Below, in pieces: positions 29,780 to 63,586 of a stretch of 64,000 nucleotides of DNA; position 1 is the stretch's first letter, and every line of letters starts with the position of its first letter. Under the pieces are notes generated by a model. The model was not told the origin of the DNA. It saw only the letters and a list, made by a program, of their open reading frames with translations, and made no database searches. The translations under genes and the position numbers were made by a program. The DNA comes from Bordetella parapertussis (GTDB taxonomy: Bacteria; Pseudomonadota; Gammaproteobacteria; Burkholderiales; JACQAP01), in the NCBI GenBank assembly GCA_945900965.1, contig CAMDKM010000008.1:33302-97301 (forward strand), given 5' to 3'.

Positions 29780-31030
29780 TCAGTAGTTGAAGACCAACGT
29801 CGCCCACACCCGGGTGAGGTCCGTTTTCCCTGAGGCCGGATCGCCGGCCCGGTAGTCCGCATATTCGATTTTGCCCACAAGTTGTGGCGTCAGTGCGTAC
29901 GCCGCGCTGACATCGAACTCCCGCCCGAACTCGATATTGCCGACGTCGGAATTGAAGTGATGGTATTCGCCGAGAAGTTGCAGCTTCTCTATCTTTGTCC
30001 CCGCGGTATAGAACACATCCTGAATGCCTTGCCTGGGCGTGACGAGAAATTGATCGGCCCAACCCTGGAAGAGGTGGTTGGTCGCCAGCGGGAACTGGAA
30101 GGCATATTCGCCCCGATTGCTGCCTAGTATCTCCTGGTCGGCGCGAATGAAGGTATCGCGCCACTGGCCGCCGATGCCGATGCGCCGGTATTCGGCGTCG
30201 ATGCGCAGGTCGCTTCCCGCGTGTGGGTGCTGTTTGGCGACTTCTCCGGTATAGAGGAATTTCCATTCCTCGCCTAAAGGGCGAGTGCCGTCCAGGCGCA
30301 GCCCGGTGATCCGGTTGGATGTGTTCGTCGGTGGCGCGGTGGCGAATGCCGAAGGACTGATGGCGTTCGCCTGATTTTGAAAATAGCCGTAAGCCGCCAG
30401 AGTATCGGTGGGAGAAAGCGAGACACGCGCGTTGAGAAGTACGGTGTCCGTCTCGAACTGCCGCGTGCTGACGGTTTTCACCCGGCCGAGGTAGCCCATG
30501 ATAATGCGCGTGCCGGGAAGGCTGCGATTCTCAAAGGTAATGCCGTTGAATACCTGCATCACCTGGCGGAATTCGACATTGCCGATGAATCGCACATTGT
30601 CGAGTTTGATCGACTGTCGGCCAGTTCGAATCACGGTGTCGGGCAAGCCGGAATAGTCCACGAAAAGCTGATTGACATCCGTATTGTCCGGGTCGGCGAT
30701 CACGGGGTATTGAATCTTGCCATTGAGGCTGTCGTTGTAATCGTCGTTCAGCCGGCCGACATCGATCAATTCCACTGTGCCGGAAAATCCCCGCCATGAC
30801 CCGCTGCGCCAGCCTGCAAGCGTGCGAAGCGTCGTGGCGTTGCCGTTATCTCTTGCTTCCTGTTGGGCGCGCTCATGACGCAGACGAAAACTCAGAATGG
30901 GCTTGCCGAAGAAAAACCCCTCTTCGGGAATTGCATTGTCCGCGGCCCAGGCGCCACCTGTTGCGATGAGCAGGAGGCCGATGAACGAAAATCGGCAGGC
31001 TATATTGCAATGTCTTGCGGGGTGCGGCAT
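29780..31030 (-). CDS. Outer-membrane beta-barrel channel (alginate-export/AlgE-like family, assigned by pattern)
   Basis: Signal peptide ...LLLIATGGAWA, alternating beta pattern and a C-terminal TLVFNY. The ATG overlaps the senC stop (ATGA). Confidence 0.75.
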   Translation of the reverse strand: MPHPARHCNIACRFSFIGLLLIATGGAWAADNAIPEEGFFFGKPILSFRLRHERAQQEARDNGNATTLRTLAGWRSGSWRGFSGTVELIDVGRLNDDYNDSLNGKIQYPVIADPDNTDVNQLFVDYSGLPDTVIRTGRQSIKLDNVRFIGNVEFRQVMQVFNGITFENRSLPGTRIIMGYLGRVKTVSTRQFETDTVLLNARVSLSPTDTLAAYGYFQNQANAISPSAFATAPPTNTSNRITGLRLDGTRPLGEEWKFLYTGEVAKQHPHAGSDLRIDAEYRRIGIGGQWRDTFIRADQEILGSNRGEYAFQFPLATNHLFQGWADQFLVTPRQGIQDVFYTAGTKIEKLQLLGEYHHFNSDVGNIEFGREFDVSAAYALTPQLVGKIEYADYRAGDPASGKTDLTRVWATLVFNY

Positions 31031-31617
31031 CAGGATCGCCTCGATGCCGCCAGCGCCTTACGTGCCGCGGCGAGAAATTCCGCATCCAGTGCGCCCAGCC
31101 TGGTCGTACGCGCCACAATACGTCCCTGTCTATCCAGCAGTATCAGAACGCTGGAATGATTGAACTCGCCGTTAGCAAGTTGTCGGTACTGCACCCCAAG
31201 CACGCCGGCAATCTTGCGCACCGAAGGAGTGTCCGTCGTGAGTAGCGCCCAGCGGGATTCGTCAATGTGGCGTTGTTTCGACAATACCTTGAGCTTCGCC
31301 GGGGTGTCGTGAGCCGGGTCGAGCGAAATCAGCGAAGTACGTAGCTCGGCTCGTTCGGTCTGGCCAAGCGCGTCTTCGGTCATCTTGAGCGTTTCAACAA
31401 TCAGCGGGCAGACATTGGAGCAGCCCGAGTAGAACATGGCAATGAACGAGACATGCCCATGGGTAGCGGCCAACGTGCGACGTCCGCCGTTCTGATCCAG
31501 CAGCGGTGCCTGCATGTGATAGATCGAGTCAGCAGGCAGAGCCATCTCCCCGGCTCGAACGCCCACGCCTGCCAGCAATGCCAGCGCCAGAGAAATGAGA
31601 GCCGTAGTTGATCTCAT
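31030..31617 (-). CDS. senC: SCO1/SenC-family copper chaperone
   Basis: Thioredoxin-like fold with CSNVCP (CxxxC) and a downstream His (FNHSSVLILLD). Has a signal/anchor. Confidence 0.85.
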   Translation of the reverse strand: MRSTTALISLALALLAGVGVRAGEMALPADSIYHMQAPLLDQNGGRRTLAATHGHVSFIAMFYSGCSNVCPLIVETLKMTEDALGQTERAELRTSLISLDPAHDTPAKLKVLSKQRHIDESRWALLTTDTPSVRKIAGVLGVQYRQLANGEFNHSSVLILLDRQGRIVARTTRLGALDAEFLAAARKALAASRRS

Positions 31618-31711
31618 CGAAAAAATTCAAGAGTGGGGATGGAATTCACATCAGGTTCGGCGCTAAGAGCTTTGCCTCAAGATCAGATCGAGAAAGTGCT
31701 ATATGAGTCCC

Positions 31712-31765
31712 GATGGTTTCTCTGTGTCCTCTGTTTTCTCTGTGCCCTCTGTGTCGAATGCTCTT
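31712..31765. repeat. CACAGAGG-family repeat copy
   Basis: Sequence is gatggtttctctgtgtcctctgttttctctgtgccctctgtgtcg. Confidence 0.75.
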
Positions 31766-31773
31766 GACCTGTT

Positions 31774-32559
31774 TCATCGCGTTACTCCATCGAGGTCGCG
31801 CGCGCAGCGGAATCCCAGGTTGCCGGTGGTATCGGCGGCTCGCAAAGACGACAGCAGGGCAATGCGCATCAGAATGGCGTAATTCTCCCGATCCGACACG
31901 CTCAGCGCCCCGGCTCCGCAAAATTTTCGCAGGTCCGGATCGCCCTGTTCGCGGTTGTCGCTGGAGACCATCATGCCCGCATGATCCTCCACCCATTCCC
32001 ATATCAAGCCGTGAAGATCCTGAATGCCGTAGAGGTTGGGCGGCGATTTTCCCACGGCGGGAAGCGGGGAAACGGACGGGCGCGCGTACCAGGACAGGAT
32101 GTGCTCCCGCCATGCCGGATCATCGCGCGCGTCCCTGCGCGTTTCGTCGGCCGCGGCGGCCCATTCCCATTCGTGCCAGGTCGGCAGTCTGGCGGCTTCG
32201 CCTTCGCAAAAAGCCTGGGCAGCAAACCAACTGACATGGGTGACAGGGCTATTGCGTCCGGCCTTGCCTGGGAGATTCGCGGACGCCCAGTGGCTAAGGT
32301 AACGTCCGTCGACAAAAATATCGGGAGCGTGCCCACGCTGCCAGGCGGGGTGACTTAAGACGAAGGCAAGAAATTCGCCATTGGTGACGGGCCGGGCGCG
32401 CAATTCGAACGACGTTACCTTCGCTGTTGGCGAGGCCGCGTCGGGCGGCAGTACGCTGCGCAATTCCCCGCCGGCGACCCGGCGGTACGCGACCGGCTGC
32501 GCCAGCGCCCCGAAGGCACTGGCGCCGAGCACCACGAGCACCAGAAGTCTTGCCATCAT
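31774..32559 (-). CDS. nirV: NirV (formylglycine-generating-enzyme/sulfatase-modifying-factor family)
   Basis: VTNGEFLAFV, PVTHVSWFAAQAFC, WEW, and LGFRCAR at the C-terminus. Lies immediately downstream of nirK. Confidence 0.85.
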   Translation of the reverse strand: MMARLLVLVVLGASAFGALAQPVAYRRVAGGELRSVLPPDAASPTAKVTSFELRARPVTNGEFLAFVLSHPAWQRGHAPDIFVDGRYLSHWASANLPGKAGRNSPVTHVSWFAAQAFCEGEAARLPTWHEWEWAAAADETRRDARDDPAWREHILSWYARPSVSPLPAVGKSPPNLYGIQDLHGLIWEWVEDHAGMMVSSDNREQGDPDLRKFCGAGALSVSDRENYAILMRIALLSSLRAADTTGNLGFRCARDLDGVTR

Positions 32560-32565
32560 TCATTG

Positions 32566-34041
32566 TTACTCGGCGGCACCTTTGGGTCGGGGCGTGCTGG
32601 CGCGCACTTTGGCGACGTCTTCGCGACTGATGCGGCCGCCCCTATTGCCCCAACTGTTGGCGACATAGGTCAGGATGTTGGCAATCTCGTCGTCGTTGAG
32701 CTGGCTCATCGGCGGCATCACCGAGTTGTAGTCACGGCCATTGACCTTGACCGGGCCAGTCAATCCGTTTAGCACCACCGGAATCGCTTTGCGCGGGTCG
32801 GTGCCCAGCCAGTCGGACTTGGCCAGAGGCGGAAATACTCCCGGCAACCCTTCGCCATTGGCTTGATGGCACACCGAGCAGGTGCCGGCAAACAGCGCCT
32901 CGCCCGCTTTGGCTTGTTGCTCACTTGTAAGTGTGCCGTTGGCTGCTGCCGAGGTCGCCTGTTCGATGGCGCCCGAAGGTTGTGCCTTGTCGGCGAGGTA
33001 AACGGAATCGACCTCCTTGCCGGAATAGATGGCTTTGTTTTCCGGACCCTCGACCTTAAGCATACCGAGTGCGCCTTTGTTGAAGGCGCGAAGCAGCGCA
33101 TGATCGACCAGGATGTAGGTGCCGGGTACTTCCAGCTTGAACTCCACGATGGCTGATCCGCCCGCCGGAACCATGGTGGTCTGCACGTTTTCCTGATACC
33201 GGGTTCCACCTTCGGTGTAGACCTTGTCGAAGATTTCGCCGATCACATGAAAACTTGACGACAGGTTTGGCCCGCCGTTGCCCACAAACATCCGCACGCG
33301 TTCGCCAACTTTGGCCTTCAGGGCCTTGTCCCCGACCATCGCCCCTTCGGAACCGTTGAACACGACATAGGTGGCATTTTCGTCGATGGCCTTTTGCATA
33401 TCGAAGGGCTGCAAGCCTTTGGCCCGATATTTACCGACCGTGTAAAAATCTCCCTGCACGACCTGGAATTCGCGATCCACCGGTGGCAAGCCCTCCGGTG
33501 GCTCAACCAGGATCAATCCGTACATGCCGTTGGCCACATGCATGCCAACCGGCGCGGTTGCACAGTGATACACATAAAGACCTTGGTTCAGCGCTTTGAA
33601 GGTGAACTGCGAGGCGTGGCCCGGTGCGGTGAAACTGGAAGCCGCGCCGCCACCTGGACCCGTGACGGCGTGCAGGTCGATGTTGTGCGGCATCTTCGAG
33701 TCGGGATGATTTTTGAGGTGAAATTCCACGGTGTCGCCCTGGCGCACGCGAATAAACGAGCCGGGGACCGTGCCGCCAAAAGTCCAGAACGTATAGATGA
33801 CTCCTTCGGCCATCGGTTTTTCGATTTCGCGCACTTCCAGATCGACGATGACCTTGGCGGGTTTTTTTCGATTGACCGGAGGTGGGACTTCGGGCGGACT
33901 GGTCAATACCGCTTGAATCGGCTCGCCCTGGGGTGGGCCGAAGTCGCCGGCAGCCGAACCCCCGGTGTCCTGGGATTTGTTGCAGGCCGAGAGCGATACG
34001 GTCAATACGACCAACGCATGGAGGGCGATATTTTTCGTCAA
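32566..34041 (-). CDS. nirK: Copper nitrite reductase NirK, lipoprotein form with a C-terminal cytochrome c domain
   Basis: Lipobox LSAC, Cu ligand motifs [10 protein letters not shown] and [20 protein letters not shown], and a C-terminal [11 protein letters not shown]...MPPM. Confidence 0.92.
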
Positions 34042-34104
34042 GGAAGGCTCCTATACGGTTATTGAGTCTGGGGAAAACGTTAACCCCGAAGAGCCTGGCT
34101 GCGT

Positions 34105-34118
34105 TTGATCCAGGTCAA
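34105..34118. promoter_or_regulatory. FNR/NnrR/Dnr-type box TTGATCCAGGTCAA
   Basis: Lies 64-77 nt upstream of the nirK ATG. Confidence 0.7.
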
Positions 34119-58429: not shown

Positions 58430-59212
58430 TCAGTGCGTCTGGCCGACGATTTCGCGCAGCCCTTGTACGTTGGTGATGCGTACGTGTTTTTGCTGCACCG
58501 AAATGTGGCCGGTTTCCTGCAGCCGGGAGAACAGGCGGCTGACCGTTTCGAGCTTCAGACCCAGATAACTGCCGATTTCTTCGCGGGTCATGCGAAGGTA
58601 AAACTCCGAAGGCGAGTAGCCCCGGGCGGTGAAACGTTGCGACAAATTGAGCAGAAAAACGGCCAGGCGTTCCTCGGCGGACATACTGCCCAGCAGCATC
58701 ATGATGCCGTGATCGCGCACGATTTCCCTCGACAACACCGCGTGCAAATTGCGTTGCAGTGCGCGGACCTTGCTGGTGGCCTCTTCGATGCCGGCGTAGG
58801 GCATGACACAAACTTCGCTGTCCTCCAGCGCGATGGCCGTGGCGTCCTGCCGGTTGGACCCCAGTCCGTCCAGGCCAAGCAGTTCGCCGCCCATGAAGAA
58901 CCCGGTCACCTGTTCGCGTCCGTCGTTGTCGACGACACTGGACTTGAAAAATCCGCTGCGCACCGAGTAGATGGCGGCAAAGGGGTCACCGGCATGAAAC
59001 AGGATTTCCCCGCGTTTGATGCGGCGCCGGGAAGTGACCACTTGATCCATGCACTGTATGACCTCCTCGGACATGCCACGCGGCAGACAGAGTTCGCGAA
59101 GATTGCAGTTGGTGCAGGTTCCCTTGGCAATTGCGGGAAATGCGGCCTCCTGTGTCGTCGTCATCAAGGGAACAACTCTGAGCGGTATACGTGCCACGGC
59201 AGCGGTTTGCAT
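58430..59212 (-). CDS. fnr: FNR (oxygen-sensing [4Fe-4S] CRP/FNR-family regulator)
   Basis: CTNCNLRELC (CX2CX5C), central Cys (SEVCVMP) and an HTH with ETVSR. The start is ATG 59212 or ATG 59164. Confidence 0.9.
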   Translation of the reverse strand: MQTAAVARIPLRVVPLMTTTQEAAFPAIAKGTCTNCNLRELCLPRGMSEEVIQCMDQVVTSRRRIKRGEILFHAGDPFAAIYSVRSGFFKSSVVDNDGREQVTGFFMGGELLGLDGLGSNRQDATAIALEDSEVCVMPYAGIEEATSKVRALQRNLHAVLSREIVRDHGIMMLLGSMSAEERLAVFLLNLSQRFTARGYSPSEFYLRMTREEIGSYLGLKLETVSRLFSRLQETGHISVQQKHVRITNVQGLREIVGQTH

Positions 59213-62191: not shown

Positions 62192-63586
62192 ATGAATTAC
62201 CCTTCATCGGATATGGTGGTCGATCCGGCGCTCATTCGTAAGTACGACAAGAGTGGGCCGCGTTATACCTCGTACCCCAGCGCCGATCACTTCGTGGAGG
62301 CCTTCGGCGAGAAGAATTACCTGCATTGGCTCGCGAATCGCAACATCGGTGGCATCCAGCAGCCGCTGTCACTATACCTGCATCTGCCATTTTGCGAATC
62401 GCTGTGTTTTTATTGCGCCTGCAACAAGGTCGTGACCCGCGATCATCGTCGTTCCGGAAAGTATATCAATTACTTAATGCTCGAAATGGGTCTGATATCG
62501 GAACTGCTCGCCGCCGATCGCCAGGTATCGCATCTACACTGGGGGGGCGGCACCCCGAACTTTCTGACCCAGGACGAGATGTCCCAGTTGATGGCGGCTT
62601 TCAACACCCATTTTGAACGGCTCCCGGACTTCGAGGCTGCCATCGAAATCGATCCCAGAACGGCGGAACCCGGTTTGATGGGGTTTCTTGCCGGGCTGGG
62701 ATTTCGCCGTGTTTCCCTTGGTGTGCAGGATTTTGACCCTGAAGTTCAGAAAGCCGTCCATCGCGTCCAAAGCGAATCGGTTACGCAAAGGGTCATGGAA
62801 GAGGCCAGGGCAGAAGGATACCAATCCATCAATGTCGATCTGATTTATGGTTTGCCCAAACAGACGCTGGATGGTTTCAACTCGACGCTGGACCGGATTA
62901 TCGCGCTCAACCCGGATAGAATCGCACTCTACCGTTATGCCCATCTTCCGCTCCAATTCAAGCCGCAACGCCGCATTGCCGAGGCGGATTTGCCCTCCGC
63001 GGAAACCGATCTGCAGATTCTTACCCTGGCCGTGGGCAGGCTGATCGCAGCGGGGTATCTTTATATCGGCATGGATCATTTCGCCAAGCCGAACAATGCG
63101 TTGGCCGTGGCTCAGCACCAGGGCCGCTTGCATCGCAATTTCCAGGGTTACTCGGCACAAGCGGAATCGGACATGCTGGGATTTGGCGTATCCGCGATCG
63201 GGCGCGTCGGCCCGACCTACGAACAGAACATGAAGAACATCGAGGACTATTACGCCGCCATCGATGCCGGGCGGCTGCCGGTGTTTCGCGGGCTGGTTTT
63301 ATCCCAGGACGATCTGTTGCGGCGCGCCGTGATCCAGGCCTTGATCTGCCAGTTTCGTCTGTCGCTGGAATCTATCGAACTGGCCTATCTGATCGAATTC
63401 AGGAAGTACTTTTCCCAGGAACTACAAGAATTGAAACCGCTCGAAGACGACGGGCTGGTGGAAGTTCAACCCGATTGGATCATCGTCACGCCCAAGGGCA
63501 GGCTGATGGTGCGCATTGTCTGCATGGTGTTCGACCGTTATCTGAGGCAGAGCCGGCAGCACGAGGGCTATTCCAAGGTGATGTAA
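62192..63586 (+). CDS. hemN: Oxygen-independent coproporphyrinogen-III oxidase (radical SAM)
   Basis: LYLHLPFCESLCFYCACN (CX3CX2C) and GPRYTSYP. Start trimmed to MNYPSSDMVVDPALIRKYD. Confidence 0.92.
   Translation: MNYPSSDMVVDPALIRKYDKSGPRYTSYPSADHFVEAFGEKNYLHWLANRNIGGIQQPLSLYLHLPFCESLCFYCACNKVVTRDHRRSGKYINYLMLEMGLISELLAADRQVSHLHWGGGTPNFLTQDEMSQLMAAFNTHFERLPDFEAAIEIDPRTAEPGLMGFLAGLGFRRVSLGVQDFDPEVQKAVHRVQSESVTQRVMEEARAEGYQSINVDLIYGLPKQTLDGFNSTLDRIIALNPDRIALYRYAHLPLQFKPQRRIAEADLPSAETDLQILTLAVGRLIAAGYLYIGMDHFAKPNNALAVAQHQGRLHRNFQGYSAQAESDMLGFGVSAIGRVGPTYEQNMKNIEDYYAAIDAGRLPVFRGLVLSQDDLLRRAVIQALICQFRLSLESIELAYLIEFRKYFSQELQELKPLEDDGLVEVQPDWIIVTPKGRLMVRIVCMVFDRYLRQSRQHEGYSKVM

Follow-up and report, generated by a model that had tools for sequence, protein, structure and literature searches.

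A locus in a genome assembly of Bordetella parapertussis (GCA_945900965.1) raises two related questions: what passes through an outer-membrane β-barrel whose gene closes a copper nitrite reductase gene cluster, and what the two proteins encoded in between contribute to the reductase, NirK. The locus lies in a stretch of 64,000 nucleotides of contig CAMDKM010000008.1, here called the window, in which translation of open reading frames (ORFs) and domain searches identified four codirectional minus-strand ORFs spanning 29780-34041, namely nirK, nirV, senC, and a barrel gene. An initial annotation had placed the same four-gene module here, and its ORFs, domains, and coordinates were all reproduced. 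It had also proposed a dedicated copper route leading from the outer-membrane channel by way of periplasmic Sco to NirV and NirK. The periplasmic part of this route, involving Sco and NirV, we can still infer, whereas the part assigned to the outer-membrane channel is contradicted by the nar and nas neighborhoods of the barrel. We consider it fairly probable that the locus is an FNR-dependent nitrite-respiration operon encoding NirK, two maturation factors, and an outer-membrane channel permeable to nitrate and nitrite. The features stressed by the initial annotation look different here: a lipobox combined with a cytochrome c domain in NirK turned out to be ordinary, and copper import by the barrel unsupported.

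According to the favored reading, oxygen and nitrogen oxides would regulate nirK, nirV, senC, and the barrel gene through an FNR-type box. Lipid-anchored NirK would reduce periplasmic nitrite to nitric oxide (NO), with electrons entering by its own cytochrome c domain. NirV and SenC, which are normally translationally coupled, would act jointly in NirK maturation, most likely by handing Cu(I) to apo-NirK or by keeping the ligand residues copper-receptive. The barrel would be a monomeric 18-strand, substrate-specific channel that lets nitrite, and also nitrate, across the outer membrane, so that its contribution would be substrate for NirK, not metal.

Gene neighborhoods and predicted structure of the barrel

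The barrel gene (29780-31030, minus strand) encodes a predicted outer-membrane protein of 416 amino acids with a signal peptide ending AWA/AD, and more than 1,000 homologs are found in public data. Its closest relatives (57-69% identity) are nar-linked, adjoining narXL-narK-narGHJI, and more distant ones lie inside nrtABC-nirBD-nasA clusters. On long contigs, three homologs (57-68% identity) are divergently oriented to adjacent narXL or narK1K2 genes, with narG coming next, and in some relatives the barrel gene stands directly between nrtABC and nirBD. A paralog in the same genome (52% identity) is located 99 nt upstream of a nasA-like gene (contig C4:71319-75490).

A scan of species-representative genomes added 80 further barrel loci, giving 84 loci tallied in all. 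When flanking genes were clustered without labels, the recurrent neighbors were NarK (36 loci), NirB, NirD, CobA, NasA, NtrB, NarX, NarL, NarG, and NarH. A single member of each cluster was compared with NCBIfam: those of NirB, NirD, CobA, NarG, NarH, and NtrB (nitrate ABC permease) scored above curated cut-offs, and the NarK, NarX, NarL, and NasA clusters were named by their best sub-cut-off matches. Copper-handling genes did not recur among the neighbor clusters. By context, 24 loci were classed as nar, 26 as nas, 3 as narK only, 2 as nirK (the window and locus L011), and 29 as none, many of the last being short contigs. When the count is restricted to the 36 loci flanked by 5 kb or more on each side, the nar contexts number 17, nas 12, nirK 1 (the window), and none 6; in two of these six, either a cd1-type NirS is encoded 3 kb away (L078) or an NrtA-like binding protein gene is adjacent. 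When 400 genomes were sampled evenly across the class, 78 of them, or about one in five, encoded a family member. Of the 40 best contexts from this sample, about 26 hold nitrate ABC transporter genes (nrtB), nirBD, nasA, narK, or narGH, with representatives including an ATPase above the ntrCD cut-off and a NarK-family transporter above its own, and none has nirK or senC near the barrel gene. A further relative is known from Bacteroides thetaiotaomicron, in which the operon of NrfAH, a heme enzyme without copper, includes an Alginate_exp gene (PMC10434189). Because Nar, Nas/Nrt, NirBD, NirK, NirS, and Nrf have nitrate or nitrite in common, and not copper, the barrel most likely admits nitrite.

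The initial annotation had assigned the barrel to the outer-membrane step of copper supply, as a dedicated entry channel delivering the metal to SenC and from there to NirV and NirK. We regard this as very unlikely. The senC stop does overlap the barrel start, the two genes abut in another nirK locus (L101), and a barrel clade accompanies nirK-nirV-senC in 11 of 27 well-flanked loci; moreover, NosA/OprC, a TonB-dependent copper channel linked to nitrous oxide (N2O) reductase, provides a precedent. Yet the genes adjoining the nearest relatives and the paralog are nar and nas genes, none of them for a copper enzyme. The products of nar and nas clusters are molybdenum and iron enzymes together with transporters of nitrate and nitrite. 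The absence of nirK and senC from the sampled class contexts and the lack of recurrent copper-handling neighbors likewise speak against copper entry. So does the variable position of the barrel gene in nirK loci, where it frequently lies at a distance from senC or in the opposite orientation, and so do the relatives near nitrite reductases of the heme type, namely NrfA in B. thetaiotaomicron and NirS in L078. A copper channel of the NosA/OprC type was also rejected on domain content: neither TonB_dep_Rec nor Plug was matched in a domain search of the barrel, and the 18-strand model has no plug. The barrel instead nests among those flanking narXL-narK-narGHJI and nrtABC-nirBD-nasA. The initial annotation had itself named clustering with unrelated substrate-specific porins as an outcome that would speak against its proposal, and such clustering is what we found.

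Barrels of the same family are nevertheless not rare beside nirK. They occur in 20 of 81 NirK-anchored loci, the window included, and in 11 of the 27 well-flanked related loci, in upstream codirectional, upstream divergent, downstream convergent, and downstream codirectional placements; the barrel gene abutting senC without a gap in L101 is of the last kind. In a joint maximum likelihood tree, 19 NirK-linked barrels form a separate deep clade, only 28-35% identical to the window barrel, and the barrels of the window and L011 fall inside a nar-linked subclade (Shimodaira-Hasegawa-like approximate likelihood ratio test support of 95-100). Judging from this tree, nirK clusters have likely acquired barrels on more than one occasion.

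Several points weigh against the favored reading of the barrel. An approximately unbiased (AU) test did not reject a single clade of all 21 NirK-linked barrels (p = 0.235), probably because the NirK-linked clade sits on a long branch whose reattachment elsewhere costs little likelihood; given this p value, we do not claim convergence. Members of the NirK-linked clade were seen only beside nirK-nirV-senC genes, and a copper role may apply to that clade. The overlap of senC with the barrel gene could reflect a functional pairing with Sco. A crude estimate from strand parity assigns conserved residues of both charges to the predicted lumen, about 10 basic and 9 acidic, a balance that is compatible with a specific channel and does not establish anion selectivity. 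The selectivity proposed for the channel is drawn solely from gene neighborhood.

Another solute, whose channel would simply co-vary with life under anaerobic or nitrogen-limited conditions, might be considered, such as a different small anion or NO and N2O on their way out, or the position of the barrel gene in the operon might be an accident of rearrangement. No nitrate or nitrite gene of our panel was found in 6 of the 36 well-flanked loci and in about 14 of the 40 class-sample loci, and the window locus has evidently been rearranged, with a repeat inserted between nirV and senC and a barrel of the nar type; its exact arrangement is shared with only one other genome, that of L011. We nonetheless consider such an alternative unlikely, since the association with genes of nitrate and nitrite uptake is very strong and extends across three pathways (nar, nas/nrt, and nirK), whose common denominator is the oxyanion substrate and not the product gas, and since barrel genes can lie directly between nrtABC and nirBD.

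In its predicted fold, the barrel resembles substrate-specific channels. Residues 63-271 match Alginate_exp (PF13372; E 5e-11), and an AlphaFold2 model built from 52 sequences has 18 strands, with a predicted local distance difference test score of 78.5 and a predicted template modeling (TM) score of 0.77. Foldseek aligned this model with OpdQ (3t24), OpdK, OprD, other Occ proteins, Campylobacter major outer-membrane protein, and AlgE at TM scores of 0.57-0.66 and structure-based identities of 10-15%. The description of the gene product as an AlgE-like β-barrel of 416 amino acids was therefore apt as to domain and fold. As an alginate exporter of the AlgE type, however, the barrel was rejected: it has the domain and the 18-strand fold, but no alg genes lie beside it in the window or among the recurrent neighbor clusters of 164 related loci, and it belongs with AlgE by domain only. 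The barrel shares its predicted fold and the Alginate_exp domain with AlgE and Occ/OprD channels, whereas its family has invariant motifs of its own, NVRFxGNVEFRQVMQVF (core EFRQVMQV) and HLFQGWAD, and occupies nar, nas/nrt, and nirK settings not reported for AlgE or Occ proteins. The most conserved motifs fall in long loops modeled with low confidence. By its placement among nitrate and nitrite genes and by the EFRQVMQV and HLFQGWAD motifs, the window barrel belongs to this family, and its substrate role is a prediction. Expression of OpdQ, one of these structural matches, responds to nitrate via NarXL (PMC4694141).

Substrate-specific porins can be encoded with the corresponding uptake systems, as OprP is with pst and LamB with malEFGK. 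The barrel family follows the same logic, in that the channel gene sits inside the operon of the transporter or enzyme for the solute. OprP and LamB are 16- or 18-strand trimers, whereas the barrel is, according to the model, probably an 18-strand monomer. General porins are usually assumed to be the outer-membrane route for nitrate and nitrite. A search of the open-access literature found no description of a nitrate/nitrite porin and only incidental mentions of alginate export in connection with nitrate, nitrite reductase, or porins. Within that literature, the barrels thus appear to be an undescribed family of porins, widespread and associated with nitrate and nitrite genes. If such a dedicated channel family exists, it would add an unrecognized and possibly rate-limiting step to nitrogen-oxide use, with effects on nitrate scavenging, denitrification, and NO and N2O production at low substrate, and thousands of "alginate export" genes would have to be reannotated. 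In anammox metagenome-assembled genomes, "alginate export" genes were transcribed at more than 100 times the median and were interpreted as serving export of extracellular polymeric substances (PMC6714388), an interpretation that would need rereading if the family passes nitrite.

In one further locus (L024, JBQTIV010000166), a barrel gene of the nar subclade lies between genes for a heme-copper oxidase subunit I and for an MtrB/PioB-type outer-membrane protein, flanks that hint at an iron-oxidizer-like relative.

NirV and SenC as conserved partners of NirK

The two genes between nirK and the barrel gene encode a predicted periplasmic protein of 261 amino acids with an FGE-sulfatase fold (nirV, 31774-32559, minus strand; PF03781, E 1.9e-27) and a predicted periplasmic SCO1/SenC-family protein of 195 amino acids with a signal peptide (senC, 31030-31617, minus strand; PF02630, 62 bits compared with a cut-off of 22.8, E 7e-17). 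We surveyed 80 metagenome loci with close NirK relatives (L089-L168), again clustering the flanking ORFs without prior labels, and the two most frequent genuine neighbor clusters were those holding the NirV and SenC of the window. The initial annotation had called for a synteny check of nirK-nirV with senC. In 54 related loci, the sequence extends 1.6 kb or more beyond nirK; of these, 53 encode NirV downstream, 53 encode SenC, and 52 encode both. In this NirK clade, nirK-nirV-senC is a near-universal triad. We also compared the nirV/senC junction in 66 loci having both genes, the window included: 23 have an exact 4-nt overlap, another 35 overlap when the longest ORF start is used, 7 have a gap of at most 30 nt, and a gap above 30 nt occurs in the window alone. 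In L011, the closest relative, the junction is a TTGA overlap.

SenC of the window has the CSNVC motif (CxxxC) and a distal histidine in FNH, and all 67 NirK-linked SenC homologs keep MFY..C...CP together with the distal histidine, which corresponds to a complete predicted set of Sco copper ligands. The conserved triad, the usual overlap of nirV and senC, and the invariant CxxxC...H site together make Sco-dependent maturation of NirK a well-founded inference, and we propose a Sco-assisted maturation step for this NirK clade on that basis.

For NirV, the initial annotation had invoked formylglycine-generating enzyme (FGE), a Cu(I) enzyme, but that copper link does not hold. NirV has three cysteines that are invariant in the homolog alignment (C118, C214, and C252), and in a phmmer alignment the Cu(I)-binding cysteines C336 and C341 of human FGE correspond to Ser/Val and Ala of NirV. 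Since both Cu(I) cysteines are absent, FGE copper chemistry cannot be transferred to NirV, and we rejected the idea of an FGE-like Cu(I) enzyme: the fold has been kept and the copper site has not. In Rhodobacter sphaeroides 2.4.3, nirV is immediately downstream of nirK, as in the window (Jain and Shapleigh 2001, as cited in PMC4770552), and NirV was present in approximately 61% of the NirK genomes surveyed in PMC4770552. Whereas senC follows nirV in 53 of 54 loci of the window's NirK clade, a third gene of this kind is not mentioned in that survey.

A further comparison is Neisseria AniA, whose metalation needs a dedicated periplasmic chaperone, the PCuAC-type protein AccA (PMC13006917). Sco and NirV are candidate counterparts in the window, so that the chaperone is of the PCuAC type for AniA and the conserved nirK neighbors in this clade are of the Sco type plus NirV. 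PCuAC is not present in every NirK-containing bacterium (PMC13006917). The genome under study also encodes a PCuAC homolog, however, and a second Sco-like protein elsewhere. Given that PCuAC metalates AniA, Sco may not be the copper donor of NirK here, and the PCuAC homolog could be. This counts against the maturation role proposed for SenC.

It is conceivable that SenC acts as a thiol:disulfide oxidoreductase, either on the cysteines of NirV or in protection against oxidative or nitrosative stress arising from NirK, while NirK acquires its copper spontaneously or from PCuAC. The thioredoxin fold of Sco proteins would suit such a role, and Neisseria Sco has been reported to guard against oxidative stress and not to act in oxidase assembly. 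The three invariant cysteines of NirV and the translational coupling of nirV to senC would fit as well, as would the PCuAC homolog in the genome and the AniA precedent. Two observations speak against it, the invariance of all Sco copper ligands (CxxxC and the distal His) across the 67 sequences and the tie of senC to a copper enzyme gene in 53 of 54 loci, and we judge it somewhat unlikely. Sco-assisted metalation is retained as the preferred role of SenC.

A search of the open-access literature found no paper tying senC or SCO1 to nirK; the matches concerned sNOR/eNOR-senC and qCuANOR clusters. The triad thus offers a concrete candidate for a NirK metalation route and, with work on nirV dating from 2001, a first testable partner for NirV. 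Taking both lines together, we tentatively suggest that barrels with the EFRQVMQV and HLFQGWAD motifs constitute an undescribed nitrate/nitrite channel family serving nar, nas/nrt, and nirK, and perhaps nirS and nrf, systems, and at the same time that NirV and Sco form the "alternative, unidentified" metallochaperone system of heme c clade II NirK proteins left open by the work on AccA and AniA (PMC13006917).

In the same set of loci (L089-L168), a recurrent block upstream of nirK comprises hemN, a Crp/Fnr regulator, qNor, NnrS, and then, immediately before nirK in 30 of 81 NirK loci, a gene for a conserved membrane protein of about 133 amino acids, with the clusters labeled by eye from their sequences.

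Heme c-fused NirK and its probable transcription unit

The nirK gene (32566-34041, minus strand) encodes a protein of 491 amino acids that scores 358.6 bits against TIGR02376, compared with an NCBIfam equivalog cut-off of 296.3. Both cupredoxin domains (Cu-oxidase_3 and Cu-oxidase_2) are matched, and the active-site motif SSSFHVIGE contains the SSFHV of clade II. As the initial annotation had noted, the translation has both an L-S-A-C lipobox, with Asn at +2 and preceded by a lysine-containing n-region and a hydrophobic h-region, and a C-terminal cytochrome c domain (residues 377-464, PF00034 Cytochrom_C) with CSVCH...MPPM, that is, CxxCH and a distal methionine. By family score, domains, and motifs, we assign NirK as a clade II heme c-fused copper nitrite reductase.

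Among solved structures, the best relative is chain 3ziy_A with its variants ("copper-containing nitrite reductase"; 802 bits, residues 30-490), which we take to be the Ralstonia pickettii heme c enzyme (RpNiR), followed by 2zoo_A (641 bits), presumably the three-domain enzyme of Pseudoalteromonas haloplanktis, and Neisseria AniA (1kbv; 461 bits). NirK of the window has the cupredoxin-cupredoxin-cytochrome c architecture and the CxxCH...M motif in common with the 3ziy_A and 2zoo_A enzymes. These solved chains begin past the signal peptide and are hence silent on lipidation, whereas the window precursor carries a lipobox. AniA is likewise a clade II NirK. It is an outer-membrane lipoprotein, and the lipobox predicts a lipid anchor for NirK of the window too, but where the latter has a cytochrome c domain, gonococcal AniA has a glycosylated C-terminal region (PMC13006917).

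The initial annotation had not seen a lipobox and a cytochrome c domain described together. In the 120 cluster representatives that match NirK best (74-89% identity), however, a C-terminal CxxCH is present without exception, at least 77 (at least 64%) have a strict lipobox, defined as [LVI][ASTVI][GAS]C, and many others have a looser one. The combination, with the lipobox as predicted, is the norm in this clade. Heme c extensions were already known from Burkholderia, Ralstonia, and Bdellovibrio when Decleyre et al. (PMC4770552) reported them in 39 further NirK sequences; the same paper classes Neisseria NirK (AniA) as outer-membrane-bound and cites a separate analysis for a C-terminal heme c extension in Neisseria weaveri NirK. 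The public gene call for NirK (P0121, 479 amino acids) begins 12 codons downstream of the TTG start used here and excludes 34006-34041; it would remove the signal peptide and put the lipobox cysteine 8 residues from the N terminus. Homologs favor the longer, TTG-initiated form.

The TTG start is preceded by AGGAG, and 63 nt upstream of it lies the FNR/Dnr/NnrR-type box TTGACCTGGATCAA (34105-34118, minus strand), a perfect match to TTGAYN4RTCAA, which bears out the FNR/NnrR-type box reported at first. The nirV start follows the nirK stop after 6 nt. At the end of the cluster, senC and the barrel gene do overlap, as had been claimed, but by one base at 31030 in the sequence TGATG and not through ATGA; GAGG stands 8 nt upstream of the barrel ATG. 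When the coding strand was scanned from nirK through the end of the barrel gene, neither a promoter-like nor a terminator-like site was detected, and the first terminator-like site lies approximately 360 nt beyond the barrel stop. The window as a whole contains 19 perfect TTGAYN4RTCAA boxes compared with 0.26 expected by chance, which places the locus in a dense island of FNR-type, low-oxygen regulation. Judging from these sequence features, the four genes probably form a single oxygen-regulated operon. Positions of the boxes include 526, 2918, 9180, 20330, 23431, 25720, 28456, 28831, 34105, and 34865. A Crp/Fnr-family gene (about 58469-59116) and hemN (about 62222-63583) were located in the window by tblastn.

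Other nitrogen-oxide genes and the nirV-senC spacer

A tblastn search of the assembly, which is 96.8% complete, recovered NirK and gave no match for NarH, NarK, NirB, NirD, qNor, or NnrS, other Nor types not having been searched, and the NarG query gave only a weak match of 25% identity. Matches for narK, nrtB, and nirBD were absent from the entire assembly. Since no nar genes were detected, the barrel would feed external nitrite to NirK. Near the paralog, the ORFs at C4:69375-70790 and 75812-76801 look by eye like transposase genes.

The spacer between nirV and senC (31618-31773, minus strand) is 156 nt long and includes about four tandem 9-nt CTCTGTGNC units at 31714-31755, confirming the repeat-filled gap described previously. 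We considered the gap as an operon boundary and rejected this, since it has no promoter-like or terminator-like site, is peculiar to the window, and is filled by the repeat. The spacer appears to have arisen when a small dispersed repeat entered between nirV and senC in this lineage alone, and it could affect expression. Sequences matching the 9-nt units (CTCTGTGNC / GNCACAGAG) turn up on numerous contigs of the genome, frequently in inverted pairs approximately 80-130 nt apart, and the dispersed repeat resembles a repetitive extragenic palindromic (REP) element or a miniature inverted-repeat transposable element (MITE). Copies elsewhere in the genome include C5:112170-112292, C15:48056-48209, and C24:30774-30929.

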